A stretch of DNA of 64,000 bases from a virus. Lineage: Duplodnaviria > Caudoviricetes. The stretch lies in IMG/VR virus record IMGVR_UViG_3300026549_000046, positions 68,048 to 132,047 of that record; one strand, 5' to 3'. This document shows positions 15 through 35,091 of the stretch, piece by piece; within the stretch, counting starts at the first letter, position 1, and each line of letters opens with the position of its first letter. The translations under genes and the position numbers were made by a program. The notes under the pieces are model-generated. The model made no database searches and was not told where the DNA came from. It saw nothing but the letters and a program-made list of their open reading frames with translations.

Positions 15-3000
15 TTATTCTTCTTTTGGCTTTTCTCCTATTTTTGTTCCTATTGTATTTAATTTTACAAATTGCCATATAGGAGTAGTTTGCTTTGTTG
101 CAGATGATGTTTTTACTATAGCATCATAAAAATCCTAATCTCCTCCGATTGCTCGCTTCCAATTAGTAACTACATTAGATATTGAAGTTAAAGAAAACGG
201 AGTCCAATTTGGCCCTCTACCCTAAAATCTTAATAAAGAGCCTATTCCATTAAAATCTTCAGTTGATTGTGTAAACATTCCTGTAAGTAATCCTAATGTA
301 GAATTTTTTATAGCATTTCCAAAATATTTATTATCGTGATCTTTCTCATAAGACTTCTAGAATTCAGTTAAACTTCCTCCTATAAGACCCCCTATAATAA
401 ATATTCCAATTATATCAGCTATTAACTATCTTAAATTAGCACTATATAACTTTGCTACATCAGGCTCTACATTCTAGAATAATTCTCTATATCCTTCAAA
501 TCCATATTTATCTGTATATTCAGATTTTCCAAAAATTGATTTTCCTATTTCTAAAGCTGTTATTAAAATTCCTTCCTGTGGACGTCCTTTCCATACTCTA
601 ATTGGAAGTCCAGTATCTTCATCTGGAACTGGAATTAATTCTCCGTTTTCATCTAATTTCCAATACCATTTATGTCCATCCTCTTCATAATCTACATAAT
701 AACCTTCCTATGTATAAGATCTTTCTTGAGCATACTAATTCTTTTTAGCAGACCAGAAAGTATTCATTTGCATAAGCATAGAACCAATCCAGGTAGAATT
801 AAACATAGATTTCTTTTCATGGGCATAATATCCATATATTCTATCAGCTAAAGCTTTCATTGATTCTGACTATTGATTTGTATATGCTTTTGGTAAAGGT
901 TTTGGATTATTTAAATCAAATTCAAATAGTGTTCCATCAGAGTTTCTAGCTCCTTCTTCAACAAGTTGTCTAGCAATAGTTATATATTCACTTCTTTGTT
1001 TATTAAACTTTTCTTTGTTTGAGGCTTTGTTTATATCTCCTTTAGCTTTTGCAAATTCGTCAAAACGTTTGTCAAGTTTCCAATCATAAATCCACTATCC
1101 ATCTTTTTTAACATGAGCATCAAAACAACCGTCAGCTTTCATTTGTGCTACAAAAATAGTCATTCTATTATAATAATCTGGTCTTGAAGCGAATCTAAAT
1201 CCGGTATCCCAAAAATGAGTGAATATTCCAGTATTATCAGTTTTTACTCTGTCTATAAATACATTCATATCCATATCATTCATACCATACTACATATTTA
1301 AAGATTCCTAAAGACTTAATTTATCTCCAAAATGGCCTAAATCTTTCATAGCAAATTCCCATGCTGAAACTAAATTATCTTTTGAAAATTGTCCACCTAG
1401 TCCACCTTTATAATCCTTAGTAAACAACATTATGTCTTTCCATACACCGTCTATGAACTAATACATTTGTTTAGGATTAAATGCCAAAGCTAATCTAGAA
1501 GACCATTTCATCATACTATCAGTAATATCCTTAAATATTGCTGCACTAGCATCTTCTCTATTTTCAAAAGGCTAATTATGAATTCTTACTTTTATATAAT
1601 TAAACAGATAATCCAAATCATTAGCAAATTTATCATTAAGTATAGCTCCTTGCAAATTTAAATGAATAGCTAAAGCTTGTAGTCTTGGAAATATTTTATC
1701 TAATTCTTCAGCCATTTTATAATTAGAGTGCTATTTTAGTAGAATAGTTTCAAGATTATGTTCGAAATAATCTTTTCCTCCAACTAATTGAATTTTTTCT
1801 CTTCTATCCTCAATATTTTCTGGTAAATCAAATCTATGCATTGAATTTACTGTTTCCCACTACGATCCATTGTTTATAGCTTTTCTTAAATCTTTATCAC
1901 TACCTAATAATCCTGTAACTTTTTCATCAATTTTCTATTTTAATTCATTTCTAATAGTTGGATTCCATATAGCCTTAATATATTTGAATTTTTCTTCTAC
2001 ATAATTAATAATTCCGCCTCTTGTAGCAACTTCAGAAGCAAAATCTCCTTTAGTTAAAGGAACTAATAAATAAGAATCATCCTATTCAATATAATCCTTC
2101 ATTTTATCAGGATTCTTTAATAATTCTTCTAAATTTAAATTTTTTCTAGTAGAATTTATTTTTATAAGAGCATATTTTAAGAATTCTCTTTCTGCATCAT
2201 CTAACTAAGAATTAGGATTCCACGGATTTAAAAATCTAAAATCTTGTGAATTTGGATCATACATAGATTTGTATAAATCATTAACCTAGTTTCCGGTTAA
2301 ATTCTATCGAATCCATCCAAAATTTTTACTTTCTTTTAATTTTTGGAGTCTTTTTCTTAATTCTATATCAAACTACATAATAGAATCCCTAACATTCTGA
2401 TATGCAACTGTAACCTACTCTGTAGCCTAATTAAGAATATGAGATTGAAGTGTTCCGGGGTTATCTGCCATAGTTCCACTAATTCCTTTAGTACTCATGT
2501 GAAACTAATAACTAGATCTTAACTACTACTGCATTTTTATTCCGTCTAATTCAGCAATAGCATATAATATATCTTTATGTAATATAGATTCTGGACTTTC
2601 TATTTGCCCTTCTTTTATGTTTTCTTGTACATAAGGATATCTTTCAACTAGTTTTTTATCTAATGACAATAACTAATCCCTCATTTTTTCTTTAGACTGT
2701 AGTCCAAAATCAATTTTAGAAACAGAATCCTTTACTTCTTTGATTAATTTGTCAAAACCTTCATCAGAATTAGCTCCTTTTATTATTTCTTTTGCGTCCT
2801 ATTCAATAATATCTAAATAAGTTGCCATTTTAATAACTCCGTTCTAATTAGATTTTGTTAAAAAATGATTATTTTTAAATCCCTAATCAAGTTTACATAA
2901 TCTATCAAAATTATACAACAACTATTCATTAGGCGGTTCTAATCCAGTCTACTATCTTGGACATAAAAGTTTAACAGATCCTATTCCTGTATCTTCTGAT

Positions 3001-4991
3001 TTAAAAATTCCATATAGTCTATTTATTACATGTAATGTTTCAATTAGTTCAATATTTCCAGCCGTAGATTCCATAGTTAGTGAATCCGATGAACTATGAG
3101 CTAAATCATCTTTCAAAAACTATCCTAGTAAATATTTACCTTTTCTTAATTTTACAGGTTGTGTTGGGTCATATAAGTTTGATATTCTTATTATATCTAT
3201 TAATCCAGAAGCTTTATTTCTAAATAATAAAATTCCATACTAATCTAATATAGGATCTATATTATCTTCACTTACTATTTCCCATATAGATGTGTCAGAA
3301 TATTTTTTCATTTTAGTGATAAGATAAGTAGCATTAGTCTTTTTATTAGAAGATTTTGCAGCTAATGATTGAATAGTATTTAAAGGATTATCTCCATCTT
3401 TATGATAATAATTTATATATGCTTCTCTTAAAGATTTTGAAGTATTTATTCCATAATTTTTATTATATTCTGCATTTTTCTATAAATCTTCTTTTAATTT
3501 TACTAGTGCTTCTTGTTCAGACAAATTTCCATCGTAATGTCTGAATCCTACATCAGAATTTTTTCTTGGACGATATTCCCATTCTCCTGTTGCAGAACTT
3601 TTTCTAATACCTCCATTATTTTTAATTAAATCTAAAATACCTTTTTCAGTAGTATCTTTTTCTGGAGTAGGAAGTTCTCTATTCATTGTTTCTTGAACAT
3701 CTTCAAAAATATTTTCTATATCATCTATAGCAGGAATATACAAATTCTTAGGAAACATTCTATCTAAGTTTGATTCAATATTGGTTCTTTCATCACTAAA
3801 ATCAGAATTAGATAATTTCTAAAGTATTGTATTTCCAACTTTATCTCCAAGACTTGAAATACTATCAAAAGAAACTTTTCCGTTTTCCATTTTAAATCCT
3901 TCAAATTTTAGTGGAGCTACATATAATTCCATTTTTTGAGGATTTATATTCATTGATTGTAATATTCTTCTATATGTTGCTAACTAATATTTAAAAGTTA
4001 ATATTTTTGCAGAATTATACTCAAATGGATTATTATCAACATTTAATTCAGTATAGTCTTTTGGAGAACATTTATAGTCTATAATTCCTATTCCAGGATG
4101 TTTTTCATCACCAATTACCAATAAGTCAATTTTACCTATTACTTTTGTTACTTGACCTCCATCTAAAGTTAAATCAAGATCTCCTACAATAGGTTGTTCA
4201 GTTCTTACATAAGCATTTTTCCCCCATTTATTTCTAATTTCTTTATCAAGCTAAATGAATCTATCTACAGAACTTTCTATAATATTATCGGAAATATAGT
4301 CTTTGTACTAAGGATCTATATTATTTTTAAACCAATTAATTATTTCAGGTCTAGTAGTCTAGTATAAGAATGGCCCATTTTCTCTTATTCTCTATCTATA
4401 GAAAAGTGCAGCCATAGCATGAATCATATTACCGCATATAGCTTGTTGTTGCCATAATCCTCCTTTTCTTACTCCATTCTAAATTACTCCTTCCATTCTT
4501 TCTCTAATTTTATTTAGAGTTTCTTGATTGGATATGGGTTTTATATTTCCAGAAGAATCCTATTCTACTAAATCTGATATAAACTATAATTCATAAGCAT
4601 TAAATTTTCCCTATTTATAATCACTAAATTTATGATTCCAATAATTATCAGAATCAAATATAGGAAATACCTAATCTGTATATCTACTAGGCATTGTATG
4701 AATTAAATCAGTAACAGATATATATGGATATTTTAAACTTCCAACATCATCGAGTTCATCAGGCTCTAATTCTTCTTTTTTAACAGTATCTATCTGAAAT
4801 CCTCTATCTTTTAAGTCTTTATATGTTTTTTCTGCTTCTTTTAAATTTTTAGCATATCTTCCTTGAATTTCAGTTAATTGAAAAACTAAATCTCCTAAAA
4901 TTGGCTTTAAAGTTTCTGTAGCTAATAAATAATCATTTAAAGCCATTTCGGAATCAAAAGTTTTATTTTTATATTTATAAACACAATTCAT
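15..4991 (-). CDS. Large putative virion cargo protein (~1658 aa, code 15) with N-terminal RecB-type PD-(D/E)xK nuclease domain
   Basis: ATG at 4989-4991, TAA at 15-17. Track ORFs 4671..4991, 3480..3758 and 1095..1283 share one frame and are separated by TAG. Motifs YISVT, GNMIH, TEQPI, GKIDLLV, IIDYK and YQLATY (Q = TAG at 3984-3986). Confidence 0.8.
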
Positions 4992-6055
4992 TAGTTACAT
5001 TCTTCTCTAAGTTCTCCAGATTTTAATAAATCCGATTTAGTATTAGCTAAAATTCTATGAGTCATTGCATTATTTAATCCTGATGCAACACTTATATTAA
5101 ATACTGAAGATTCTAATTCCTCCGCCAAATTTCTAATAGATTTATTAAATATTTCATTATCTTCTAAAGATTTAATACTATAGTTTCCATCAATTATAGT
5201 ATCTATATCTCTTTTAATATTATATAATACTTGACTTATTATATCCTTCTATAAATTGTCAAACAAACTACTCTATCCAGTTACGAATTTTGATAATTCT
5301 TCAACAAAAATTTCTTCTAATATATCATTCATTGTTCGACTTCCTTCAAACTCGGAAATTCTATCTTCTATATTTGGGATATTCTGAACAACAGACATAA
5401 GTTGCTAAAAAAGTGAAGGATTTGAAAAACTAATAGACCCTATAAATAAATGTAGCATTTCATGAATTGGACTATCGATTGTAGCATTATCAATATTTAT
5501 ATAAATAGTCCCATTTTTTATAAATGCCTTTGCAGAATTAACATCAACATTATTTACTAATTCGTCATTATCTATATATTTAATATTAATTCCATAACAT
5601 TCTATCATTTTATTTAAAGCATTAGATAATCCGACTTTCTACTAATCTATATCTTCAGGAATATTTGTTTCTATAGTATTATCTAATATATTATATTCAC
5701 TAGGTCTTTGTTTAACTTTAACAATAGTAGTATTACCAATCTCCTGCAGTTTTATATCTAAATCTCTATGTATATCATTAAGGGCTGCATTTGCTTCTTG
5801 AATAGAATTAGTGCCTGTAGCAGCTAAAACTTTATTTGTACTTGTATAATTAGTTCCTTTATTTGAACTTTTCATAGAGATTTCTTCTTTTAAGCTAGGT
5901 AAAGAATTAGCTCCTGGAAGTTCATCTAATTCTGGAAGTCTTCCGTACTACTCTTTAAACTAACTCATTCTGTCTAAAATGATAGAATCAGAAAGTCCAG
6001 ACTTTTTTAAAGTCTGAAACTTTCCATGATTCCTTAACGAGCAATAATCAGCCAT
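4991..6055 (-). CDS. Zincin-like metallopeptidase domain protein (~354 aa, code 15)
   Basis: ATG 6053-6055, TAA 4991-4993 overlapping the next ATG. Joins track ORFs 5642..5875 and 5405..5608. HEMLH motif at ~5450-5464, preceded by KAFIKNGTIYIN, with LEEIFVEE downstream. Confidence 0.8.
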
Positions 6056-6056
6056 T

Positions 6057-9000
6057 TTAACACTCTTGTTTTTGATTATTTCTGGATTTTAATCCATGTC
6101 TCAAAATATCTAAATCTAATTGGTAATATTTAGTTCCATCTGAACGTTTTTTATGTTTAAACTAAAATATATCTAAACATTCCTCTTTAGTCCATCCTAA
6201 TTCCTAAGAATTTTCAATAAACTAATTTAAAGTCTATTGTTTTCCATTTATTGTTAAAACAATACTATTAGAATTATTTATTATTATTTCTTTAGGATTT
6301 TCAGAATTTTCTATTAATTGGTATATGTCAGAATTAATTTCATATCCTCTGAAAATAATAGAACCATTAGAAGCAATATTAGGATTCATACTTACGTCTG
6401 AAACTTTTAATTCTTTAGTTAAATCATTCCAAGTTATATTTCTTCTTGAAGGTCCTTCGCTAAATTCACTATCATCATATCCTATTTCATTAGCTAATTG
6501 TTCATTAATAATATCCTATTGAATATCTTCAGGAATATTTTCATCCTCTGAAGAAGATCTTTCTTCTTGAATTGGTCTTACTAACTAGTATTTATTAGTT
6601 TCTGGATTTAACAAATAGGAATAAGGATATTGTGAAACATTTTCAAATCCAGTTACAACTGGGGCTAAAAATCTCATTAACATATCTTCATCCTATTCAC
6701 TAAAAATAGGTTTATCTGATTTATCACGTTCTCTAAGGAAATTAGTATAATCAGAAATATGAGTATTCTAATTATTTACTACTAAATCTTCAAATAAATC
6801 CGTTAAAGCCTATACTCCAGGCTGCCCATTATATGCTATTAAATTATAATAAAATAGTGCAGTTACTATTCCAGCATTACTTCCATCTTTTAACTTAACA
6901 GAATTTAATTCCTATAATCCCTATTTAATTTCATTAAACGTAACATTCTCCTAAGGATTCTTCATATTATAAGACTAAGATTTTGCTATATTTACTGAAA
7001 GATTATGGTCTGGATTAAATTTATAAGTTCTTAAAGTAATAGCTTTAACAAATGCATTTTCTGGGTAATTACGTTTTAAATAAGGATATAAATAATTTAC
7101 AACCCATTCAGCAAATATTTTATTACTTTTATCATCTCCTAATTTTATATTTATATATTTAGGATTACCTTCTTCATCAAACTCTTCTTTTAATTCTCCA
7201 TTTACTATTGAGAATATGGGAAGTTTAAATATTTCTTGTTGACTTCTTAAGAATTCGTTGTTTATTTTTCTAAATATTACTGAATTAGCTGTTTTCTAGA
7301 ACTAATCTAATTTAGAAGATTCTATAATATTAAGTTTTGGAAGTATCCATTCTGATAATTTGGTTTGTTCTTTATAAACTATTGATGCTACTTTTGATCC
7401 TTCATAAAGAAGATTCATAGCTTTTAAGTATCCTCTATAATGTGGAACATTTAACATTACATCCATAATATTTACAAACTATTTTGCAGCACCATAAGCA
7501 TTTATAACTGCTTTCTAATATTCAGGATTAATTAAGAATTGATTTAAATCTATGAATAAATCATCTTCAAAGAAAATTTTACCTTCTTTTTTAAATTGTT
7601 GATTTAATGTTTTTAATGGAAGTAAAGATTCATCATCTTCTTCTAATCCTTTTCTTTTTACAGCATTTCTTAATATACTTCTAAACCCATTTATCCAATT
7701 TAACTAATCCTACACAAGATTTGGAAGTCCTTGATTTAAAGATAAAACTTTTCTAAGTTCTCCCATTTCTTCATTTACAAGATTTAGTTTTTTAATTTCA
7801 TATAGTCTTGTATGTTTTTCTCCATCTCGACTATATTTATCATTAACTATATCATTTTCTATGATTTTTCTATAATCTGTCCAATCAAAAATATTCTATA
7901 ACCAAGTTTTTAGATTAGAGCCTTTTTTATCCCAAATAATATTTTTTAGGGATTTTATAGAATCATCTTTTGATATTTCTTCTTGTAGTTTTTTCTATGT
8001 ATTTAAATCTTCTTGTGCAGTAGCATTTTGTTTTCCATTAACTAAATCTTTATATCCTTCTAATAATGTTTTTAATTGGTTATAACTAGATTTTTCTTCT
8101 TTTAATTTTTCTAGTCTTTTTTGTTTTGTTTTAGATAAACTTTCTAAATTTGATAATTCATCAAGTTCTAAATTCTTTTTACTTCCTTCTTTCCATGACC
8201 AATAAGCTGGATCAGATTCAATATCTTTTATTGACTATTTAATTAATTGTTCATCAGTTTTAGATATTCTATTACTATCGGGATGTAATAAAAATCCAGC
8301 TAATTGTCTCATTCTTCTTCTTAATCTCTTACTCATTAAAGCTCTATTAAGATCTTCTTGAGTTATTCTCTTGTTATCAGAATGAGGAATTTTATATAAG
8401 TCAAAGATTTTAAGTAATATATTCTGAACTTCTTCTGGCTATCTTCCTAAGTTCGGAGGAAGAAGTAAGAAATTTATTGCTTGAGAAAGTCTATTAAATT
8501 TTTTAGAATCTTTATCAAAAACATTTCCTTTTTGTAAATTATTTAATAATATTCCAGTGTCAGAAATCATTAGATCTCTAAGAGAGTTCATATCAACTCC
8601 CATTATTATTCCAGCAATATAAGTACCAATCATTCCTGGATCAGCATTATATTTAGATAGTGTAGGATCTTTAGCATTATCAGTACTTAAACTTAATAAA
8701 GCAGACATTAATATGAAAGCATCTTCAAGATTATCTACACTCTATAAAGCCTATTTGACTTCTTCATTTTTAATACTATCTTCATTTTTAACATAAGAAT
8801 TGGCTAAAAGCTAAAAAGATTTTCCGTTTATTCTAACATTTGCTAATAAACTTCTTTGCTATTCTTCAGAACCAAGAGCAAGTATATTATAATAATACTA
8901 ACTCATTGCTTCAAAAGTTTTCATAGCAGAAGCTACAATACCTGTATTCTATTTTCCTGACAATGTAAGAATTAAACTTCTTATTCTTGCCATAATACTA

Positions 9001-12000
9001 TTAGCATCTGATGTTACTGGCAATGCTGATAGTCTATCAAATTCCGAGCCTGGTGCTACAGCATCTTTAAAATCATCTGTTGCTTCATCAATTCCTGACT
9101 ATCCTTGAATTAAATTTATTGGATTTTTAGAGATATTTTTAGTTTTTATAGAAATAAAATTATAAAGAGCGTATTTACGTTTAAAGGCTTTATTCTTTCC
9201 ATTTAAGAAAGTGTTATGTCTATCAATTAAATCTATTTCTTCCTAAAATCTAGGAGATATATATTTTAATTTATTTGCAGTTCTTATAAGTTCAACTAAG
9301 CCCGATAAAGAGTATTTACCATCTTCTGTGAATTCTAAACTATTAATATATTCATCAAAATCCTCTTCAAAATTATATTCTTTAGTATTAATACTATTTT
9401 TTATTCCCCAAGCTTCATTACTTATATCCTTAACTCCCTCTAAAGAGTCTTGATAATAAACATAGTCTCCTTGTGGAATTTTATGTAAAATAGCTCTGAT
9501 AGTAGTGTAGCTTATATCTCCAGATATAGCCCAATAATCTTGAGTTTCAGTCTAATACTTTATTGCAGATAATACATTTCCATTACTATCCCTTACTATA
9601 ATTTGATTGTTATTTTGAATTAAGGTATCATAATTTTTTTCATTGACATCAAATGCTCTTGCTGTCATAGAATCAACTTGTACTTTTCTTCCAGTAGGGA
9701 ATGGAAATTTTTCAGATATATCTGCATTTTCTTTAGAAGATAAATCATAAAAACAGCTCCATGTAATTAATTCTCCATTATGAAATTTAAGTCCTAATAC
9801 ATTTGCTTTATCTATGTCCAGTTTATCTTATATTTTTCAATATAAGCTCGACTATATCATCATTTCAAAATATATATTCTGAAATGTCTCGCGCTTCGGA
9901 ATCTTACGAATCCTACTCCATTTCTGGATAGTCTGTGAACCTTCATCTTAAATTGAAGATGCTTGGCTGCGGATATTCCAATTCATTTCCTTTTTTACTA
10001 TATCGATAATAATTAATTATCGCCCTCAGATATATTTCTATTCTAAGTTAGTAGGAAAGACTCTAAGGAAGTCCCCGTCAATTCACGAGATTTAACGACT
10101 ACAACATTATTTAAGTGCATAGTCACTACCTTGAAGGAATAACTACATTCTACTAACATATATAGAATTAGCTTTTCCTTGGTCAAACCCAACTATTCTC
10201 ATAGCCATGAAGGACTAATGAGATTGAGCTGGAGTTCTTGATACAATACATTCAAGAGAATCTAAGAAAGAAGTATGTTTATTGAATCCTTTCTAAATAA
10301 TAGTTTTTAAGAATGGATATTTTATCTAAAGATTTTCAATTAGTTCTTGTTTATTAGATAATCTATTATTAGTTATAACTTCTAATAATTTGTTTATTCC
10401 TTCTTGATAATCTTCTTGACCTTTACTTATTAAATCAGAATATCTAATTTCATTAATTAATACATCATTATTAATAATATCATTAATTGTAAGGTCTTCT
10501 ACATTCTATATTTGTAATAGTTTCTAGTCTAATCCTTTATCAACTAATATTTTTAAAGAATTATCTCCATTTCCAGATTTAAGTCCTTCTTGATGATTTT
10601 TAGTTCTTACTCTTGCTATATTTACAATTCTTTCAATTAAGTTCTAAGAAACTTCATTAGTTGAATTATTTATTTGTGATAATATCTATCCAAGATCTTC
10701 TTCTCTTACATTTCCAAATTGTACATTATTATAGTTAAAATAATCTAAAAACTGTGTCAAATTATCAGTACTTATAATCTCAGTTCCATTTTTACTTCTA
10801 AATATTTTTGTATTTTCAGTAATTGGATATAATTTCTTTCCATTTTCTGAACGATAAAGTACTCCGTTTTCAGTAATAGTTTCTATATCAATTTGAGTAA
10901 GACCTCTAGGTAATTCCCTACCATCAGCATAATGCAAATAAATATGATTACCACTTCCAACTTTTAATTCTAAATCAAATTGATGTGGAAGTAATTTAGA
11001 AGATATTTTTTGAGCATCTCTTTTAATAAAGAAAAATTTATCTTCCACTATTTCATCAACCTAATCCCCTTCTTGTAATCCAAATTCAGTTCTATACATC
11101 ATTGGAAGTACTGCTTCGTATGGAGTTACTTTAGTTTTTGTTTTATCGACAACAATGGTCTATCCATCTATTTGAACAGTACTAGCTGTTCCATTTCCTA
11201 AGGCATCTAAAGTTTTTTGTAAATTATGTCTTAAATATTTTTCAAGCTTAATATTTCTATTAGGAATTAGATTGCCATTATTATCAGTAGTATAAGGAAC
11301 TTTTAAAGAAATTAACCAATCATCAAGAAGTTCATTTTCAAGTTGACTTAATATTTCATTAGATTTCCATTTATTCCATATTTCTTCCTAAATAGTTTCA
11401 GGTTCATCAAAAGTTCCGTCTTTCCTAATATACTATAGCTGTCTTACAACGTCAACCTACCATAATGAATATTCAATTCCGTCTTTAGAAGTTAAAGTAC
11501 AATCATATGTTCCTAAGTCACGTCCTATAGCTTTTTGAGTAGAATTATCAATAAAAGCTTCTGTAATACGTTGTCCTTTTTTGTAAGCTTCTCTTAATAA
11601 TTTAAAGTCAGGATAACTATCAACTTTAACTAATTGTAATTTATTTCCTAGTGCATCTGAAATATAATAATTTCTTCCAAATTTTATCTAAGAAATAGAT
11701 AAAGGTGTAGCATCAGATTTTTTCTACATCTCAATAAGTTCTTTAGGACTTACTTTTCCACTTAAACGATTTCCAATAAGTTCTTTTCTTCTATTAGATG
11801 GATTTAATACCATTTGACCCCCGTCCATTTTGAGACGTACAGCCTTTTCAATACTTGAAGCAATTTTAGATTGAATAATATTGAATATACGTGGATCACT
11901 TATTGCAAAATTTCCTTCAAAATCTTCTAAGCTATTTAAATTTAATTCTTTTAATCCCTAAGCTAATACTGACATAATGTTTCCATCTTCTATAGAAACA

Positions 12001-15000
12001 TTATTTAAAACTTTCTTTAATAAATTATATATAAATATTTTTAAAGGTTCTGAATTTCCATCTTGTAAATGTAATAATCCATCAAATCCTTCTTCAAAAC
12101 TCTATAATACAACAGCTTCAAGAGCTTCATAACATTCTTGGGCAGCCTCACGACTATAACCCCTTGCTCCTAACGCATTAACAACCTAAGTCATTAGTGA
12201 TACATGTCCTCCTTCGGAATCATGTTCAGCATCAAGCTGCTCTCCAAAATCAGAAGAATTACATTCCATCCAGGTAGCCTAATAATCTTCATTATAGAAG
12301 TCTATAGAATTTATATTTGTTGCTCCGAATTTAGAAGCACCCATAGTTACAACAAAATTAACCATAGATTGTTTAAGAACCTGAATTACATTTTCCTAAG
12401 TTTTAATTTTAGAGTTTTTGAAAGCACTTTTATTATTTGTAATTCCAGCATTATTCATTATTTGAAGAACATTTAATGTAGAGGAATCATCATTTTCATA
12501 AGATAATCTACCATTCTATAAATGTCCAGACCATTCTCCTCCAAAAACTTCTTTCCATAACTAATAATTAGAATCTATAATTTTGTCTCCAACTCCTTCA
12601 TTTCTTGAGTTATTTAATTCTTCTCCGTTACTAGCAACAGTAACTTCATCCCAATGAGTTATTCCATTTTCATCAATTCTAAGATTACTACGTTTTGTCC
12701 ATAACTATTTTTCTGGATTATAAACATACCAAGGGTCTACTTGAATTGCAGTTTCGTCATATTTTTGAAGATAATTAAAATATGGATTTTGTATTCCATT
12801 CTATTTTAGAATTTGTGTCCATTTAATAGTATCATTCATTTTACGATTCATTATGGCATCTCTTCCATTGGCTCCAGGTAATTGACTTTCTCTAATAGAT
12901 TGGTTATTAATTAAAAATCCAGCAGTTTTAATAATTAATCCAATACCCGTCTATGAATCAAGAGCATGAGTAAAAGGTTTCATAGTAGTTCCCATTGCAT
13001 CTGCTCCAAGAGAATTATTATCAAGAACATTCATAAACATATTATAGAATGTTGCACCATCATAAGGTTTAGTTCCACCTTTCTTATATAATCCTCCATA
13101 AGTAATAACAGAATCTCTTTCATCTTCAACAATAAAGAATCTTAATTTTTCTCCAATACCATATAAAGAATTTTGCATTTCTCTATGTTTAGAAGCGGTC
13201 TAAGATACTTGACGTTTTACTTGCTATCCGTATTGAGACTCTTCGTAATTAAAGATTGAAGAAGAATTTGAGTTTCCAGGATGTGCTATAAATGATCCAA
13301 CAGATGTTAGATTATAAGATTCTCCTATCCACTGATTTAAAGCATTGTGTTTTTCAATTTCAGGATTTAATTCAATAGAATATTGTGAAGATAATCTGTC
13401 TTTAACAATATCTAAATCTTCAACTAATTTAAACATTTCAGAAATTAAAACATCATCCTTAGAATTAATAATACTCTGTTCTACAATATCATTTATTGCT
13501 AACTTTGCAATATAATCAGATAGTTCTTCTTTTGATTTAGAATCAATAAATTCTTGAGCCTTTCTTACAATAGTATCATCATGCCAAGTAGGATTTTTCT
13601 TTCTTAAATTTGATTCTATTGCAATTTGAATATTTGGAGTTAATTTAAGAAGTTTATTTTTTAATCTTTTATTATTTAATAATATTTCAATAGCTTCTTT
13701 AGTAGTTAAACTTCTAAGTCTTCTTGTATTATTAATTATTTCTAAAACTTTATCAAGTCTAAATGTAGGACTTGAAATTTTTAAGTCTGCTGGAAGACTT
13801 TCTCCAAATAATTCTACTAGTTTCTAGTATTGATTCCAATTTTCAAAATCTTTTCTTGAAATAATAGATTGTTTATTTTCTTCTCCTAACATTACTTTTC
13901 CAAGAACAACCATTGAACCTTGCATATAATTAATATCATTATTTCTTTTATATGCAATAGCATTAGCTTTATCAGCAGCTTTATCAAGTTTTATTGTAAT
14001 ATTATTTCCAAAAAATTCTTGTAATAATTGATATTTGTGCCTAATTTTTTCTTGTTCTGGAGTTTCTAATAACTAAGATTTGTCAAATTTTAAATTAGAA
14101 TCAATTTCAAAATTTTTAACAGGTCTTCCATATATAGATAGTTGATGGAATAATGATGGATTGTTATGTAAAAATCCTTCTTTGTCTTTAATATAAGATA
14201 CACCATCAATCATTTTTACAGAATAATCTGGCTGTCCTTTTTCAAGTACCTATCTCTGTAAAGTAGCCACTGCATTATGTAATACACTAAAAGCTGTTAC
14301 TTTAGTTAATCCTTTTTGTTCTCTAATAGTATTTAACTAGCGTATATAGTTATTAAATTCCTAAAAATCCGAATTATAATCTAAAGTAGGAATCTACTAT
14401 AACAAAGCTTTTTCTTCTTCTGAAGCAACAATTGGAATTAAAGGAGTTACTATTTCTAGTATTACATTGTTAATTTTATTATATTCCTAAATAATATTAT
14501 TATGTAATTTAGCGTAGTAATTTCCAAATTCTAACTGTTGTACTTTTCTTATTTCATCAGCAGTTAAATCTTTAATATATTTTAAGCCTACTCCTGGAAT
14601 ATTTACAGTATCTAAAGGTCTAACTAATATTTTAGGTAATTTAGATTTATCAGAAATTGTTGGACCAAATATTCTTATAAACGTTTCATTAATTTTTTTA
14701 TGTTCTGGAGTAATTTCTCCAAATTTTCCATCGTCTGTTTCCTAAGATATTCCATCATATAAATCATAAATAAAAGAACCTGAGAAAAATTCATTAGATG
14801 AAAATTTAATAGCCTACTAGTTACTACCTAATCCATTATAATCTCTTACAAATTCAATTCCATTAAATAACTGATAAATTGAAAAATCATTATATTTCAT
14901 AATAGAATTTGGATTGAAATTATGATTATATGATAATTCCATATATTTACTCATAAGCTAAGATAGTCCTCTAATAGCTAACTACTTATTTTCTCCATCT

Positions 15001-17141
15001 TTAGCGGTATTTTCACTAGTATATCCTAACTAAATATCTCTTGTCTAACTAAGAGCTAATACTTTAGGATATTCAGAATTAGGAATTAATTCAGGCTATA
15101 AAGAACCTCTTGACATTCTTATTTCTGTCCCATTATAAAAATCTCCTATATGAGATTGATAATCATTATAAGTTTTTGCATTAAGAGTTTTTCCTACTTT
15201 ATAATTATAAAGAATAGAACCAGCAATGTCAAATAATTCTTTAAGTGATTGTTCGCCTCTAATAGATTTGTATATACTTATAAAATTATCATCAACTCTA
15301 AATCCAAATATTTCTGATAAGAAATCATATAGTTCTGGAGTTAAATTTTGTAAATCTACATTTTCATATGCAGTATACTATGCCCCATTTCTGTATTCTG
15401 TTTTTCCTATAGATTTTAGATTTGTAGTAACTCCATTAGAATTTCCTTCTAAAGTTAAAAGAAAATTAGTACCCTTTATATTTACAGTTAAGAAAGGAAC
15501 ATATTTGTTTTCATTATTTTTTTCAAATTCTCCAAACTCAACAGTTCTAAAGTTCTAAGGAACAGTAATATTATATACTCCTTCCCAAGAAAATACTTGA
15601 TTATTTAATCTTTTATTAGAAGTGTTTTGAGTTATATTTATTACTTCTCTTCCTCCATTTACATTTTCTTTGTATTCACTAAATGGAGTATTTTCTATAT
15701 TAACAAATAATGTACTAAAAAATCCGAATAAGTCTGAAGTCATATTATTTGAATTAGATCTTAGTACAATAGATAATAATGAATTATTATTAGAATAGTC
15801 ATAAATATTTTTATAGATAGAATGAATAATGTCCTATACTTGTGGTTTTCCTGTAAAATATGTTTTTAAATTTTTATCTAATACAGAAAAAAGAATTGGA
15901 GCAAACATTATAGGATTTGTTTTAGCTTTTGCTAATAACTTTCCTACTGTATCATAAGTACGTTTTATATTATTAAATCCACTATCTCCATAAATCTATT
16001 TTAAATCAGATATTTTTTGTTCATCTAATGAATCATAATCTATTGAACGAAGAGTTAATTTTGGATTACTTAATAAATTCATTATTTCTCCAAAACTAGT
16101 TTTTATATCTCCAAAAGTTATTTTCTATGGAGTTATATTGTCTCCTTTCCAAACATTAAGACTTTCTACATATAACTAAATTATACTTCCTATTTCTCCA
16201 GTCTCATCAATATCTTTTTTATCATCTTTCCATGTTCTTGCAGCTTTATTTCCAAGATTTAAAGTATATTTTTGTTTATTTCTTAATACATCAGCACTAT
16301 AATCTTTGTTATAACCTATAGATACTGCATCTCCAAATGCGCTAGAAATAAGTTCATCAAAATTAATTAAAGCTACTAAAGATATATATCCTTGAAGTTT
16401 ATTTCTTTGAATAGAATTCTCTAAATTAGGTATTTTAATTAAATCTATTCTAGATAATGGAGATAATATTTTTTGTTCAAATAGTTTCTTTAAAAACTCT
16501 ATTTTAGTTCCAAGAGTTCTATTTGAATTATAAGCATTTAATAATTCTGGATAAAATTCTTTTAAATAATTTTCGACATCATTTAATAAATCTTCCTAAT
16601 AGCATTTAATGGATTTATCCATATCTGAACTAGAAACATTTAGTGTCCAAATTTCCCCTGTTTTATTTATAAATAAATTCTGAATTACATTATTTTTAAA
16701 TCTCTATTCAAAAGATAATCTAGCATCACTAGATAAAGGAAAATATTTACTTAAAAAAGAGTTTTTCTAACTTTCTCTTTCTAGTTTTTCTTCTAATGTC
16801 TCGTCTAATATATTTTGTTTAGAATCATTTTCACTAATACTATTAAATACATTAGAATCTTCTCTCTATGATTCTATCATAGAAGGGTTAAAAGAAGATA
16901 GAACCCTATCTAAAATAGGGTTCTCTTTTCTTCTTTTTCTATTTGTAATATTATTTAATATTTTATCTACTGCTTCAAAAAAATCCTCATCCTAATATTC
17001 AGTTCTTAAAATTTTTAGTGAATCTAAAAACTAATCAGATAATTCATTTTCATCATTTATCTTCTATATATTAGAAAGTATATCTGATAAAGACTTACTA
17101 AATCTTTTACTACTTAATTTCCCATTACATAATAAACTCAT
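6057..17141 (-). CDS. Virion-associated DNA-dependent RNA polymerase, crAss-type, join(6057..9818,10119..17141), ~3594 aa
   Basis: ATG 17139-17141, TAA 6057-6059. Track ORFs at 15555, 13224, 12951, 10686 and 8439 are all in this frame. Motifs DGATF, MKPF, QLDAEH and RTPAQSHQSFMAM, plus catalytic QGSDY|DIDKA restored by removing intron 9819..10118. Confidence 0.85.
9819..10118 (-). ncRNA. Group I self-splicing intron (300 nt, no ORF) in the RNA polymerase DxDxD motif
   Basis: 5' exon GACUAU pairs with internal guide GUAGUC (U.G at the splice site). Core elements AAUUGACGGGGA (P), AUCCGCAGC (Q), UUCACAGACUA (R), AUGAUAUAGUC (S). Terminal G at 9819. In-frame TAA at the 4th intron codon makes splicing obligatory. 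Confidence 0.92.
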
Positions 17142-17154
17142 AAAATCTTAATTT

Positions 17155-20100
17155 TTAAAATGGAGCTACTGGAATTGTATAACTACAAGAATTTTCATTT
17201 GTATCAATCCAACTTCCAACAGCTTTAGCTAATTGTTCAACATCTACAGAAGTAGTTTCTGTTCCATTTGTAAATAAATACGAAGACAATGAACTGCTAT
17301 CTTCTATATCTTCAATTGAATCTGGATCCCCTTCTGTATAAATATATTTTAATAATTTTATTATATTTAAATTCTATTCTGGATTTCCATTATTATTTTT
17401 TACTTCTGATATTATATTTAATACTCTCTAATCTTCTAAAATTCCTCCTTCTAATTCTCTTATAGTATCTTCATATAATCCTAACAATTGTTCAGGAATA
17501 ATTATTTCTTCAGCAGAAGGACTATTTAAAGAATCTAATTTCTACTAAGCAATTTGTTTTATTTCAGTATCAGTACTCGGATTATTAACTATAGACTACA
17601 AAATATCTGGATTTGAAATACTTTCAGAATTTGTTTCTGATAATATTCCTAGTTCTCCGTCATTTGTTAAGAACATTATTTCTTTTTCAGATAAAATCAA
17701 AGATTTTTTAATATTATTAACTTTTCTAATAATATATCCATTCTATATTTTAATTGGATAAAAACCTAACTAACTTAATTTATCATATAAATATTTCTAA
17801 ACATTTGTAGGATTAGGGTCTCCTTGTTTAACGGTTATCTAGGTTTTAATAGACACTTGATCTGTATTAGATATATTTGAATCAAATTTAATCATTCCTG
17901 TAAGTTTTTCATTAAATATATCAGTTTGAGTTTTTTCTTTTGTAGTTAATTTTCCATCCAAATATGCTTTTGTATTTTCTCTATATAACTTAGCTTTTTC
18001 CTAATCTGAAAAATTATTTAACCTTGAACGTCCTTCCGTAGAAGAGGGGTTAGGAATACCTTTTTTGATTATTTCATCTAAAATTGGTTCAATATCTCTT
18101 ACTACAGCTGTTGTTTCCAGTTTTCCATTTATTTCAAATGAACGTTTTGATATTTTAGTATCATCTTCAGCATTAACTTTGGCAAAAGTGTAACCTTTTA
18201 CTGAAATGTTTTCTGAAGCATTTGCTAAAGGAACATAATATTGAATTCCTGTATACTTATTATTAGTAGCATCTTTTATTAATGCTTCTATCTTAGGTTG
18301 TTGAAAATCTTTAAATATTACTTTTCCAGAAGGATCTCTAGATAAACTTATATCTACAATTTGTCTTCCTAAAGCGGGACCATATACAGAACCAGAATAT
18401 AATAATTTTCTAAATTCGTATTGTAATACTGTTCTTAATGGAGTACCATATTTAAGCTTAGTAGGCCAATTAATAGCAGCTGCTTTATCTTTAATTTCTT
18501 TTGGAAGATTTTCTATAGGCTTGTCTAATAAAGATAATAATTGATTAGCTTTAGTTCCATTATTTATATTAAATCTTTCTTCAGCAGATTTAATTTCCTA
18601 AACTAATTCTTTTAACTACTTCCAACGATTTTTGGATTTTTCAATATCTTCTTTATTTGCATCCTTAATTCCATCCATCCATTCATCAAAGTGTGAATCA
18701 AATTCACTTCCATCTGTAGCAATAAAAGATAATAATCTATAAGCAGATAATTTATTTCCTAATAAAGAGTCTATTTCTTCGGTTGAAAAATCTTCTCCTT
18801 TTTTAGAAACAGCTCTATCCATATTATATAAGAAATCTTCTATTGTTCCTTCTGGTGTATATAAATACATTCTTTTTACTTTCTTTGATTCATCAGAATT
18901 TTCTGCCTATTTAATGAACTGTTCCATTAAAGTTTCAAAAGAAGCATTTTTTAATTCTGGAGCGTCAGAAATTAAAACAAACGGATCACCAGATTTTGCT
19001 ATTATTTGTCCATTAATTATTATATCAGATTTAGAATTATTAACTCTAATTTCAGATATGTTTCTCCAAGACATTCTCTTTCTATATTCTTCAAGAGAAA
19101 CAGGCTATCCCTTATAATCATAATCATGTGTAAAGAAATATTCTTCACCTCTAGTTTGAGCATGAATTATTCCAGTAATTTTTCCTGAATTTAAAGTAAA
19201 ATCATTATCAAATCTTACAACAAAATTAGAATAATTTGAATATAATTCTACTAATTTATACATACTTTTTGTATGTAAAGGTGCACTAGAATCATTATAA
19301 TGGTTCCATAACCATTCTTTAAATTTATTTAAACTCTCTCCACAATCATTTATAAATACCTATTTTAAGTCTTCAAATCCCTAAGTATTTAACATAGTTA
19401 AAGGAGACGTCATCATAGCTACGGGAACTTCAAGTACCTACTTATCATCTATGAATATTTCGACTCCTATAGTCTGCCTATGTGGAGTAGTTAATTTTTC
19501 TCTATTTCCGTCTTTATTAAAGATTCCTAGAAGTTTTTCTTTAACACTCTTAAAAAATTTCATAAATCCAGATGAGTTGACAGTATCTAATTCATATGAA
19601 TTTTTATAAATAAAGTTTACTTTAACTCTAGAAGTATCATCAATTCCTAAGGCTTGTGATATATCTTCTACAATATCAGATTTATTAGTTCTATAACTAG
19701 CAGAACTTCTAATTAAACCTAATATTTTTAAAGCTTTTTCTTTATTTTCTTGAGATAAAGTTCCATCTGATTCGGGTTTAATTCCTAAGGAACTAATTTT
19801 AATGAGTCCATTAATATTATCAATTCTTTTATCAGAATTTGGAGATAGTTTTAGTTTATTGTTTGGATCAGTTGGATCTAAATTATTATCAGATAATTCA
19901 CATCCAGTTTCTTGAACCATTACTGTATGAAGCATCATATTTAATTCTCCATCCTTCTCATTTTTTATATCAATTTCCTTTATAGTAGCATTTTTAGAAT
20001 CTATTTCTTCATCAGATTCTGACTCGTGGCCTTCATTTTTATCATTATCAGGTTCTTCTATATCTGGAGTATTAGTTGTTTTAGTTATGGGTTTCCATTG

Positions 20101-23100
20101 TGGTTCTGGAGTCTTTTCATAGTTTCCTAAAACTTTTTCAAGAATTTCTTTACGTTTATTACCATAATTAGTAATTGAATCCTAAGACATTTTTTTATTA
20201 ACAAGTTTATCCATTCTAGTAGAACTTATTAATTGAGAAACTGTACTTTCAGTTCTATCGAAAATTAATGTTCCTTGTTTTGCTCTTGAAATAGCTGTAT
20301 ATAATGCTGCAATCTATCTCTAAGCCTATAAAGTTTGTTGTTCTCCTGGACCTGTTTTATTTAACTATAAATCTACTACATAATATTGTCCTTCCTAACT
20401 TTGAGAGGCTCCTGCAGTAATAATATTTATTTTTCCAGAATATTCTCCAGAAGAATTTAAATTAGAAAGATATTTATATAGAGGAGAATCTACACTGTCA
20501 TAAATGTAATTTAGTTTTTCACCATCTTCTAGTGTATCTAACATTAATTTTATTGTGTCCTTGGTATTCTAAGGAATTTCATCACTATAAGTAGATTGCA
20601 CAGAATCTCCATAAAATCCAGAGTTATCAGAATAATAAGAAAAATCAAATAAAGTAGTATATGGTTTATCAGTTGTTAAAATATCTGATATTTTATTTTT
20701 ATTTTCCCTAAACTTTAATATATTATTTATTTTATATTCATTATTTCCTCTAATAACTTGTCCTAATTTATGAGTTCTAATATAATTAGTTCCTACCTAA
20801 AATATTGGAGCTCTCTACTCATTTCCTTTTTGATCTACTTTTCCTGTTTTATATTCTCCATATACTCCTAACTAATCAAAGTCTCCTGCTTTTATAGAAT
20901 ATATTCCTTTGGCTTTTAACCAAGCTTCTTCTAATTCAGCATCTGGCTGAGATAAAGATGTTGCTTCATCTATTATAACAAGTGAAGCATTTAAACCGTC
21001 AGGATTTGGATTTATTTTAGAGTATTTAACATGACCTGTTTCTTCATCATAGGTAATATCATCTCTTGTAATTTTAAGATTTCCGAATTCATCATATTCC
21101 CAATCTGGATAGTTATCAGAAATATGTTTAAAATATTCATCTTTACTAAAGATTTGTACTCCCTCTAATTTTAATCCAGTAGATTTTCTAAGATTATCTA
21201 ATAATAACTATGAGTTTTCATGAGAATTACTAACTAATACTAATTTTTTAAGAATATCTGGATGATACTAATCTAACATTCTTAATAACATAGTAAATGT
21301 TGCAGTGGATTTTCCACTTCCTGGAAGTCCTTCTATAAATATACTTCTAAAAGTATTTATATTTAAATAAGGCTCTACGTTTCCTTCACTATCTATTGGT
21401 AAATTTTCATTATATGCTTTTGCAAAATTTTCAAATACTTTAGGATTTAATATAAAAGTATATGCTGTTCTAATAGCTTCCTCTTGTCCTGCAATAGGCG
21501 CAAAATTTAAAGAAAAACTGTTCTTATATTCATGTAATACACTTTCTGGATTTGCAGCAGCTAATGATGCAATATACCAAACAAAATCTGATTCTGGAAT
21601 TCCTTTTTCATTTTCATTTAATATCCAATCAGATTCTGATCTAGAAGGCTAAATATTTTTTAATAATTTTTTAAGCTATTCATTATCATTTAGTTTATCT
21701 TTATTTTTCTAAAAGAATTCATATACAGCTTTCTCAAATTTTGTTCTAGCTTCAGTAATTTGCTATTTAATTTCATCAGTAATTTTTAATTCTTTATTCT
21801 CTTCTATTTTTGAAAAAATGTCAGAGATTTCAGAACTTTCCAATTTATTTCTAAGTTCCTATATTCCTTCCCAATCATCAATATCGGTACTTCCTATAAA
21901 TCTTTTTACTCTATCATATAAATATTTAGATTCTATTTTGTATGTATTATCATGAGAGGTTAGTACTGACTATGTATTACTAGCATAAACACTTTTATAC
22001 ATTAATAATTCACTTCTATATCTATTAATATCTTGTTGTATTAATGTAGCAATATCAGAATTTATAAGAGCTAATTTTCTTGGGTTGGATTTTGTTTCTT
22101 CTGTTGCTTTAGAACTTCTAGTCTTAGTTTTTCTATTCTTTCTTATTTCGTTTATTGTTGCATTAAATCCAAACAAATCGGTTAAATCTCCAGTAACTGT
22201 TGTTTTAGCAGATTCAAGAGCTACTAATGCTAAATCAAGTACATCTAAAGCCTAATTTATTAAAACTTCAGTATCTTCATCATAATTAAAAGATTCAACA
22301 TTTGCAACTTTAGCCAGATCCGATAATAACTTACCTATGTTTCCAGAAATCTAAGGAATATTTATTCCCTAACTTCTTAAAGTTCCTACAACATTAGATA
22401 TAAATTCATCTATAGGGGAAGATGGAATATCATTTAAAGCATCCAAATATTCTTTTGCAGTGTCCGAGTCTAGTTGAATAGTTTCTTGTTCTCCAAATTC
22501 ATTTTCAACTTTTAATTGGCTTGTAAAGAAATCTATAAATGCCTATTTTGTAGTTGGAAGTAAATATTTGGCATTTTTTAATTTATTAATTATAAATTGC
22601 TTTACCTCTGGATCATATAAAAATTCTATTAAGTACTTATTAAATGCCTAAGTTTTTTGTATTTGAAGATTTCTATTAGCCTATTTTAATTCTGATTCAT
22701 ATTCATCCAGATTATCTTCAGTTAGAGAAGAAATATTCATACCTGGATCCTAAGACCATCCCAAAATAGTATCTACTATTTTTTTTCTATCTTCACCAGA
22801 CATTTGTTTTAATTCTTCTATTGTAGGCATTACATCTCTCCCAAGAATTTCTGCGACAGATCCTTTCATATCTGCTATAGCATCTAGTCTTTCTTTTACT
22901 TCCTTTGATTTTGCAGCATCTAATCCAACAATTAACTAACGTTGGATATTTGTTAATAGAGGATTAATAACATTATCATAAACATGTAAAAATTGTTCTA
23001 CTCTTTCTGAAGCATGTTCTACATCTCTATTTATTTTAAACTGTTCTCCAAAAAGAATTTCTTCTATATTTTTTATAACTGCATCTTTATTTTTAAAATA

Positions 23101-28800: not shown

Positions 28801-29287
28801 TTTGGTCGTTTCTAATAGCTTTAACATAATCTGAAAGGTTTGAAAAATTTCTTCTTATATTTCTTCCATGTGCATCATTATCTCCAACAACCCAATTCTT
28901 TCTTAGATTTCCATTTTCATCAAAAAATGTAGCTTTAGACCCTGTAGGAAGAAGTTTGTCCACAGCTTTAGCCCAATTTAGGCCTACATCCGTAAACTAA
29001 CCTTTATCATTTAATAAAGCATCTCCAAAATCTCTATAATATTGTTGACCTTCGACTCCTTTAGTATAATTGTAATGTTCTTTCTAAACTCCAAGATTTC
29101 CATGACTAGTAGGAGTGTATCTGCCCTAATCATATCCGGAAATATTCGATTTCCATGCTGGCTACAATCTATTAGTATCTCCAGCAACAAGTCCTCTTTC
29201 ATAATCCCACTACCAATCATTAGAGGGGTCATAAGGTTTTAATCTAGAAAAAACATTTCCGTTCTAGAACTTAAAAATATTTTTCAT
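25811..29287 (-). CDS. Large putative virion cargo protein (~1158 aa, code 15), coiled-coil rich
   Basis: ATG 29285-29287 overlaps the upstream TGA. TAA at 25811-25813. Includes track ORF 28730..28963. Frame checked by hand across 27600-27720. Carries FQNGN, SKGMK and MQQGG motifs. Confidence 0.7.
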
Positions 29288-32136: not shown

Positions 32137-32156
32137 AAAACTTTAATTTAAAAAAT

Positions 32157-32193
32157 AAAGGGTAACACGACTTATCGTGTCGCATTACCCTTT
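32157..32193 (-). terminator. Probable intrinsic terminator/stem-loop
   Basis: Inverted repeat AAAGGGTAA-CACGA...TCGTG...TTACCCTTT just downstream of the stop at 32199, followed by a T-rich tract on the minus strand. Confidence 0.6.
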
Positions 32194-32198
32194 AATAA

Positions 32199-32507
32199 TT
32201 ACTTTTTAATCCATCTCGATAACTTTCCTCCCATCTTATATACGGGAGCCTCTCCAGCGGGAGCGGCAGGTTCTCCACCTCCACCTAGCATCTAAATAAC
32301 GGCTTGACATACTTGCATTGCCAATTGACAGTCTTGAGACTCAAGAGCTTGTTGGCAAGCCATCATTAACTATTGGGCAGGATCCTCACCACCCTATTCA
32401 GGAGCAGGAGTAGCATTTGGATCTTCTGTAGGAGCGGCTACTTCTCCGCCTTCCTAAAATTTAGGAACATATTGTTCCTCGTTGTAATTCTTAATTTTAA
32501 TGTTCAT
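32199..32507 (-). CDS. Small Pro/Ala/Gln-rich virion (internal) protein, 102 aa, code 15
   Basis: Translated by hand: MNIKIKNYNEEQYVPKFQEGGEVAAP...QQALESQDCQLAMQVCQAVIQMLGGG...PVYKMGGKLSRWIKK*. Contains four TAG codons. Missed by the ORF track. Confidence 0.75.
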
Positions 32508-32611
32508 AATTATCGATAATTTTAAAGTTAATTAAATATTATATACTATTTAAGTATATTTTAAACATCTTTTGTCTAAATTATCATTTGTATATATAGA
32601 ATCAAAAATAA

Positions 32612-34178: not shown

Positions 34179-34185
34179 AATACAT

Positions 34186-35085: not shown

Positions 35086-35091
35086 ATATTA

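Follow-up and report, generated by a model that had tools for sequence, protein, structure and literature searches.

Wherever two members of the virion RNA polymerase (RNAP) module of crassviruses are encoded as separate genes, the termini that face each other carry a cysteine, and the outermost termini of the series do not. We describe this rule from the 64,000-nucleotide stretch of viral DNA analysed here as a whole (positions 68,048 to 132,047 of IMG/VR record IMGVR_UViG_3300026549_000046; hereafter the window), in which consecutive minus-strand genes encode a helicase-like protein (A), a giant RNAP (B), a zincin-like protein (C) and a PD-(D/E)XK nuclease-like protein (D). The rule is conserved across the order, depends on real polypeptide ends, and goes with a depletion of cysteine from the interior of the proteins. 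We consider the chances slightly better than even that the RNAP-module cargo of crass-like phages is a split polyprotein whose members would be concatenated by disulfide or metal links close to their termini. No viruses are more abundant in the human gut than crassviruses, and the way in which they load several very large cargo proteins, RNAP included, and then drive these through a narrow tail still awaits explanation; a terminal-cysteine rule that tracks gene breaks and is lost at gene fusions gives that problem a concrete handle.

The chain in the window, with its terminal cysteines, reads as follows.

17155..25803, minus strand: protein A, helicase-like cargo of 2882 amino acids, first in the chain, start MEEKQND, end ...NSCSYTIPVAPF
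17185..17187, minus strand: TGT codon of protein A Cys2873, verified
10119..17141, minus strand: exon 1 of the RNAP (protein B), start MSLLC with the Cys5 codon at 17127-17129, end ...LQGSDY inside the catalytic DxDxD
9819..10118, minus strand: group I intron of exactly 300 nt without an open reading frame (ORF) (Rfam RF00028, 75.9 bits, E=4.9e-19)
6057..9818, minus strand: exon 2 of the RNAP, end ...NQKQEC with the last-residue Cys codon at 6060-6062
4991..6055, minus strand: protein C, zincin-like, 354 amino acids, from MADYC (Cys5 codon 6041-6043) to ...EECN (Cys353 codon 4997-4999), with HEMLH at residue 198
15..4991, minus strand: protein D, PD-(D/E)XK, 1658 amino acids, last in the chain, from MNC (Cys3 codon 4983-4985) to ...KPKEE, its C-terminus free of Cys

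All six inner termini of these four proteins contain Cys (counting back from the C-terminus, A at -10; B at 5 and at the last residue; C at 5 and -2; D at 3), and neither of the two outer termini does. When each protein's own cysteines are placed at random, p is ~1.3e-9 for all six inner termini having a Cys within 10 residues. The original prediction, made on this DNA from its letters, had named the Cys codons at the inner termini, and a codon check located every one of them where it had been placed; the two outer ends of the series, MEEKQND and KPKEE, were likewise confirmed to lack Cys. Its description of the large cargo proteins as Cys-poor also bears out. The chain ORFs as called hold 3 Cys in A (one 10 residues from the C-terminus, none at the N-terminus), 8 in the two RNAP pieces, 3 in C and 6 in D, a total of 20 in 8441 residues (0.237%, or 0.24% rounded; 21 with the RNAP spliced, which adds 50 residues of exon 2), against 0.81% (0.811%) in the remaining ORFs of the window.

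Reading TAG as Gln is needed to open the five long minus-strand ORFs of the chain, which contain 59, 56, 32, 7 and 47 in-frame TAG codons. Translation of the region with table 11 or table 4 was ruled out, as it gives practically no long ORFs, and so was TAA as Gln, which yields read-through artefacts only. For the RNAP, the predicted MSLLC start and KQEC end belong to one protein once the intron is spliced, but not as raw ORFs, where the gene is in two pieces (10107..17141 and 6057..9668). Removal of 300 nt joins GSDY in frame to DIDK and restores DYDID at residue 2340, giving an RNAP of 3594 residues with 9 Cys that starts MSLLC and has Cys as its last residue.

Past Cys2873, protein A continues for nine mostly hydrophobic residues, Phe last, and its relatives end alike (...SCPITIKIKL, ...SCPKIISIDF, ...QCSPLIIIF). 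In A (window 17158-17187, minus strand; loci L004-L056, with IMG/VR loci cited by L number throughout) and in crAss001 gp50, a post-Cys tail of 8-9 residues is conserved, mostly of alternating hydrophobic residues and with Phe or Leu at the end (CPITIKIKL, CPKIISIDF, CGANTLYEL). The tail of A and gp50 resembles a beta-strand and could dock onto the N-terminus of a partner. A search for homologs of A returned close relatives plus a single match at 29% identity; in the homologs at 67-94% identity the Cys near the C-terminus is retained and the N-terminus is free of Cys.

The window proteins have no BLAST-level similarity to those of named phages, so the homology of the module rests on motifs, order and context. 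The DxDxD of two-barrel RNAPs is present in the window RNAP, in crAss001 gp50, phi14:2 g066, p-crAssphage gp44 and the other named RNAPs, and together with the HExxH zincin it places the window, by its sequence, within the Crassvirales virion RNAP cargo module. Like that module, the window encodes, beside structural genes, large accessory proteins, a zincin-like domain and a giant RNAP with DxDxD; it differs in that four separate genes make up its module, running from helicase-like through RNAP and zincin to nuclease-like. In crAss001, gp45, gp46, gp47, gp49 and gp50 are virion cargo, and leaving the particle was argued to require their partial unfolding (Bayfield et al., PMC10172136); phi14:2 g065-g067 have been verified as virion proteins by mass spectrometry. 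From synteny we infer that the window proteins, too, are packaged in the virion and ejected.

The terminal-Cys rule holds in all eight named crassviruses tabulated, from three families, and in Flavobacterium phage Fpv1. Phage phi14:2 gives the barest example: g067 (1797 amino acids) has one Cys, its last residue, the RNAP g066 (2180) has two, at positions 3 and 2179, and g065 (1421) has one, at position 3. These four Cys in 5398 residues all lie at inner termini (p ~3e-11). In crAss001, gp47 (2341 amino acids) has one Cys at -3, gp50 (2412) has Cys at 5, 1334 and 2404 (-9), and gp49 (1349) has one at position 5, while the other cargo proteins gp45 and gp46 have no Cys near their ends. DAC15, IAS, cr50_1 (Suoliviridae), p-crAssphage, crAss002 (Intestiviridae) and Fpv1 all comply; in cr50_1, for example, gp059 (4774 amino acids) combines zincin and RNAP and terminates in ...KECE, and MQC opens the protein that follows. 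In the named phages, Cys is present at 0/9 of the outermost N-termini and 0/9 of the outermost C-termini.

The gp47 gene of crAss001 is convergent to those of gp50 and gp49 rather than in tandem with them, and the C-terminal Cys is still present. This retention places the constraint at the level of the protein rather than in a nucleotide signal at gene junctions, and it rules out a translational-coupling motif.

The single-Cys proteins also bear on the idea of an intramolecular clasp, in which the N- and C-terminal cysteines of each protein staple its own ends together. Such a clasp would suit the RNAP and the zincin, each of which has Cys at both ends and, in the zincin, often no others. It cannot form in members of 1300-4400 residues that have one Cys alone, namely g067, g065, crAss001 gp47 and gp49, DAC15 61, crAss002 gp32, Fpv1 gp33 and the proteins of loci L158 and L163. 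As a general explanation the clasp is thus largely refuted, and we regard it as highly improbable.

Conservation in homologs, on which the original prediction had staked its claim, was followed beyond the named phages in two samples of IMG/VR relatives. The first comprised 80 loci around zincin homologs, from both standard-code and TAG-recoded genomes and amounting to about 37 distinct relatives; they were retrieved by a search seeded with a zincin alignment, the single zincin sequence having retrieved nothing. Counted as distinct termini, Cys was present at the C-terminus of the RNAP in 34/34 (e.g. ...NPC, ...KNC, ...NCQ), at the N-terminus of D in 35/35 and at the C-terminus of A in 10/10. 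The zincin N-terminus had it in 35/37 as called and 37/37 after correction, the zincin C-terminus in 36/37 as counted and 36/36 after correction, and the RNAP N-terminus, in the form M-x(1-3)-C, in 13/14 as called and 14/14 after one start was corrected. The control, the outer C-terminus of D, had Cys in 2/43. Two of the misses were zincins with GTG starts overlapping the RNAP stop, one was a zincin C-terminus lost to a position filter, and at the one RNAP N-terminus the true start is an internal MIKC directly after the stop of A. Once start-site miscalls are corrected, every inner terminus in the sample complies. The zincins of L026 (about 10001) and L037 (about 10001) are apparently GTG-started, (M)DNCLIK... 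and (M)ANNCLIK..., and ATG-only calling drops their N-terminal Cys.

The second sample comprised 80 further loci found with a three-sequence alignment of the RNAP core, at 25-100% identity to gp50, of which 59 are non-redundant; a seven-family RNAP alignment was too diverged for a locus search. These 59 loci show the same pattern, and the exceptions examined resolved as an internal MAKKC start, an endonuclease-bearing intron at DxDxD and an in-frame stop. Several of the loci are as sparing with Cys as phi14:2. In L158 an ORF of at least 1737 amino acids has its sole Cys as the last residue, and the next ORF, of 1404 amino acids, starts MHC and has one Cys; L163 encodes 4111 amino acids with one Cys, at -2. 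Over the 160 loci, Cys falls within the first 8 residues in 96.5% of the 256 complete chain proteins that reach 1200 amino acids or more, with 0.32% Cys overall, against 9.8% of 614 other ORFs, with 1.62% Cys overall.

The terminal Cys is thus conserved across 31 aligned zincins, the IMG/VR termini, 59 further loci and nine named phages. The predicted start sites also held up: corrections of starts raised compliance, and the starts that the rule predicts improve on some of those annotated. Accordingly, practically no credence can be given to chance, to base composition or to artefacts in the calling of starts and ORFs, and the data reject this explanation. AT-rich genomes and short N-terminal windows can give spurious patterns, and a few automatic starts were wrong; yet p is ~1e-9 in the window and ~3e-11 in phi14:2, the pattern is kept across more than 100 diverged loci and among proteins without detectable sequence similarity, C-termini are defined by stops independently of start calling, and correcting the starts improved compliance.

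The cysteines were also examined at gene fusions. With cross-family domain boundaries taken from BLAST ranges, gp50 corresponds to g066 and to the N-terminal half of p-crAssphage gp44 and crAss002 gp33, gp49 to g065 and to the C-terminal part of gp44 and gp33, and gp47 to g067. Separate RNAP and gp49-like proteins have Cys at both facing termini; in fusions of the two, the inferred junction zone is free of Cys (gp44 residues ~2300-2650; gp33 ~2430-2800). In Fpv1 everything through the zincin, RNAP included, is fused in gp33 (4401 amino acids), whose sole Cys lies at -2; the protein after it begins MAC. The prediction had proposed loss of the junction Cys in fused orthologs as a check, and gp44, crAss002 gp33 and Fpv1 gp33 all behave in this way. 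In L141 a fusion of RNAP and gp49-like protein has a Cys-free end, and the protein before it, of 1811 amino acids, has a lone Cys at its very end. Gene breaks and Cys pairs are equal in number: one in p-crAssphage, crAss002, cr50_1 and Fpv1, two in phi14:2, crAss001 and DAC15, three in the window and four in L060-L068. As read from these sequences, the terminal Cys depends on real polypeptide ends, being present where the protein is split and absent where it is fused.

The fourth pair in L060-L068 (8004-9005) comes with an extra protein of 333 amino acids between the RNAP and a zincin of 549 amino acids. It has exactly two Cys, in MSAKNC... and ...KGCE, and the terminal-Cys rule thereby flags it as a putative new member of the chain. 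L071-L080 have instead a zincin of 804 amino acids with two Cys (MSC..., ...ENC) and a D with one Cys in 1523 residues, at position 3; when the 333-residue protein and the 549-residue zincin were compared with the 804-residue form by BLAST, the zincin portion alone aligned.

Two further explanations have to be weighed against these fusions. In the first, the links would be homotypic, with single-Cys proteins forming homodimers, tail to tail or head to head, and two-Cys proteins homopolymers or rings, condensing the copies in the capsid. A single terminal Cys is enough for dimerisation, and about six copies per crAss001 virion have been suggested for each protein, as an illustrative estimate. 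Homotypic links would, however, have no reason to track gene breaks, the need for them should survive fusion intact, and they leave unexplained why the first protein has Cys at its C-terminus only and the last at its N-terminus only in every lineage; we therefore think this explanation very unlikely.

In the second, the cysteines would be anchors for storage in the capsid, with every terminal Cys tethering the protein that bears it to one shared third partner, such as the portal barrel, an inner protein of the capsid or tail, a further cargo protein or a metal cluster. The structural proteins of crAss001 use disulfides extensively, gene adjacency is dispensable in that phage, and p-crAssphage gp47 and crAss002 gp30 have a lone near-C-terminal Cys without an N-terminal partner in the next gene, all of which would fit a tether. 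It does not account for the Cys-free outermost termini (0/9 each in the named phages and 2/43 for the C-terminus of D), for the joint loss of both Cys at fused junctions, or for the 1:1 parity of C- and N-terminal Cys across the genomes examined. We judge it unlikely, while granting it some weight.

The zincin, the smallest member of the chain in the window, shows the constraint on individual residues. A search of 5.8 billion proteins gave 77 homologs of about 350 amino acids at 34-100% identity. All that are full length have a Cys at 3-5 plus another at -1 to -3, and in about 25 the terminal pair are the sole cysteines. In an alignment of the 31 representatives (34-87% identity), C5 and C353 are invariant columns like H198, E199 and H202 of the HExxH. 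Most of the enlarged variants (663-1119 amino acids), which bear inserted domains, contain no Cys beyond one at each end; the variant of 1119 amino acids has Cys at 3 and 1117 only.

The identity of the zincin itself is less sharply defined. It has no Pfam match, and one homolog bears a DUF4157 label given by its source. The AlphaFold2 (AF2) model has a predicted local distance difference test score (pLDDT) of 85; its fold has no confident match in PDB (Foldseek against PDB; VIA-align wide), and the fold searches gave weak matches to small metallopeptidases and ArdC (Z 3.4-3.5). An hhalign comparison of the zincin profile with crAss001 gp47 and phi14:2 g065 aligned the HExxH core alone (E about 0.07).

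The constant presence of a zincin in the module, together with a role for a protease in activating the RNAP proposed in the literature, might suggest that the terminal cysteines are recognition or modification sites, such as a cysteine switch of the zincin, acylation for membrane targeting after ejection or a processing mark. Cysteines are also found, however, at junctions free of zincin (A to RNAP in the window; gp50 to gp49 in crAss001), a cysteine switch requires one Cys and not a pair per break, there is no signal peptide or lipobox with the Cys at 3-6, and loss of the Cys on fusion is left unexplained. We regard such sites as quite unlikely, although a cysteine switch, in which a pro-segment Cys ligates the catalytic zinc, might operate at the zincin's own termini. 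A lipobox lipoprotein was ruled out in its own right: a lipobox would put the Cys at about 15-25, behind a signal peptide with a hydrophobic core, whereas the Cys at 3-6 is separated from Met by only 1-4 residues, polar or small, and nothing hydrophobic comes before it. Split inteins were also ruled out: they call for an upstream N-intein of about 100 amino acids that begins with Cys and a downstream C-intein in which terminal His-Asn is followed by Cys, but Cys at 0-10 from the C-terminus and at 3-6 leave no room for intein halves, and there was no intein Pfam match.

We return to the reading we prefer, the split polyprotein held together by links near the termini. Each break in what would be one giant polypeptide, ancestral or alternative, would be marked by a Cys 0-10 residues from the upstream C-terminus and a Cys at 3-6 of the downstream protein, and the junction cysteines would bond with each other, as a disulfide or via a bridging metal. 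A, RNAP, zincin and D, and elsewhere gp47-gp50-gp49 and g067-g066-g065, would then be joined head to tail in a near-linear covalent thread. A near-terminal link of this kind would be expected to persist through partial unfolding in the narrow portal and tail channel, unlike a non-covalent complex, and to hold the members in fixed stoichiometry and order, and reduction in the host cytoplasm could undo it. Purging the interior of Cys would prevent wrong cross-links; fusion would make the pair of Cys needless, and an inserted protein would have to supply a pair of its own. That the cysteines pair, that they pair in gene order, the chemistry of the link and its part in packaging or ejection are what we infer from these sequence patterns.

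If this is true, a giant gene can be split while its products stay covalently continuous. A more tentative extension, to which we would give somewhat less than an even chance, is a redox-gated train of cargo, which would be a previously unknown way for split genes to remain functionally equivalent to a polyprotein. Up to five separately translated proteins (more than 8000 residues here), linked head to tail via near-terminal Cys, might pass through the tail one behind another before the DNA does, and reduction in the host cytoplasm would then free RNAP, helicase, protease and nuclease in active form. At the front of the thread would be the first protein's Cys-free N-terminus, and at its rear the last protein, which has a hydrophobic segment towards its C-terminus. 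That segment, in protein D residues 1518-1545 (window 357-440, minus strand), is strongly hydrophobic and transmembrane-like (...IADIIGIFIIGGLIGGSL...) and lies near the C-terminus; at the same threshold, protein A has no segment above Kyte-Doolittle 1.5.

Several points weigh against a covalent chain. The virion is assembled in a reducing cytoplasm and the gut habitat is anaerobic, so a disulfide could form only late, and ordered packaging would then need prior docking that is non-covalent or metal-mediated. A classical Cys4 zinc site would need more than the single Cys that each terminus offers. That the cysteines pair in gene order is an assumption, and the parity in crAss001 fits gp47-gp50-gp49 and other pairings alike. 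Fused polyproteins, if they are cleaved after packaging as proposed, may need no covalent continuity. Finally, p-crAssphage (L082) gp47 ends ...GGKQSCR and crAss002 (L084) gp30 ends ...FRCGGKKKIA, each with a lone near-terminal Cys, counted as the sole one within the portion read, and the protein that follows (gp46 and gp31, start MPI) has no N-terminal Cys. The near-C-terminal Cys of these two proteins is absent from crAss001 gp45.

Comparison with known systems helps to place the proposed chain. Polyvalent proteins with an MPTase (zincin) domain, which occur in phages and conjugative elements, are likewise giant, multidomain and delivered with the DNA, with RNAP, helicase, nuclease and zincin-like peptidase domains, and the zincin has been proposed to process them (Iyer et al. 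2017, PMC5512222). There one polypeptide becomes pieces by proteolysis, whereas in the window separately made pieces would apparently be tied together; the polyvalent-protein paper makes no mention of cysteine or disulfide. In some crass-like phages the RNAP-module proteins are fused into polyproteins, and a protease has been proposed to activate the RNAP (Drobysheva et al., 10.1101/2020.03.07.982082); that work does not mention Cys. The ejected proteins of N4-like phages (Schitoviridae, DEV study) have 0.00075% Cys against 0.865% (PMC11445570), a strong depletion shared by the crassvirus chain (0.24-0.32% against 0.8-1.6% in other ORFs). The N4-like proteins are essentially Cys-free, whereas the crassvirus proteins retain exactly the near-terminal Cys, which stand out against that near-total absence.

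Within crassviruses, the crAss001 virion has structural inter-subunit disulfides in the gp57 dimer and in tail hub and ring proteins (PMC10172136). Crassvirus particles therefore do use intermolecular disulfides, but these stabilise symmetric parts of the tail and capsid and are not near-terminal head-to-tail links between cargo proteins. The word 'cysteine' is absent from the main text of Bayfield et al. (PMC10172136), which has nothing on cargo linkage, and in the literature on crassviruses with cysteine or disulfide, and on gp47, gp49 and gp50, we found no prior account of terminal Cys or of a covalent link between cargo proteins.

A further analogy comes from outside the phages. Nicked AB toxins are disulfide-linked di-chains that are released by reduction in the target cytosol. 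If the crassvirus links are disulfides, the two would have in common a covalent hold during translocation and a reducing cytoplasm that separates the chains. The toxin is a single precursor nicked within a disulfide loop, whereas the crassvirus chain would consist of separate products end to end, up to five of them, with the bond proposed from sequence.

Whatever the chemistry, the rule has practical uses. It predicts true starts, as for the GTG-started zincins and for crAss002 gp33, tells intron breaks apart from real protein ends, and picks out additional chain members, the 333-residue, two-Cys protein of L060-L068 being a candidate. In crAss002 (NC_055828, 11088-11190) the annotated start of gp33 is MVLDYS, and the start of p-crAssphage gp44, MSCGN, finds its counterpart in an internal ...KY-MSCTPS..., so the annotated start is probably 32 codons too early. 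RNAP ORFs are split in L028, L035, L042, L067 and L074-L077 as well as in the window, and there is no Cys at those breaks, as expected for introns and unlike protein ends. In L117 (about 11240-12137) the same DxDxD motif is interrupted, by an insert with an ORF of 216 amino acids that is likely a homing endonuclease. One in-frame stop in L150 (12586-12589) divides the RNAP ORF into 1803 and 474 amino acids, again without Cys at the break; the stop probably does not mark a true end of the protein but stems from a sequencing error, a recoded codon or a pseudogene.

Some minor observations concern the window proteins and their neighbours. A search of PHROGs gave 0 matches for all five ORF proteins of the chain. 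Protein A has a weak Pfam match to AAA_22 (E=2.9e-5), and its GLPGSGKS at residue 1492 is a Walker A motif; protein D matches PDDEXK_1 in Pfam (E=4.8e-6). Upstream of A (window 25811-37131, minus strand) lie ORFs of 1158 amino acids with 1 Cys, 950 with 0 and 679 with 0, none with a terminal Cys; these Cys-scarce ORFs are probably other ejected proteins, counterparts of gp45 and gp46. Among the zincin homologs, P0082-P0095 and P0079 (555-918 amino acids) have an inserted domain recorded as PF18760; most of these enlarged zincins have the terminal Cys pair only, and P0079, P0086 and P0088 have one or two more. In p-crAssphage (L082, 24978-26245) an annotated thioredoxin, gp39, and a truncated thioredoxin, gp37, lie about 2 kb from the RNAP module.

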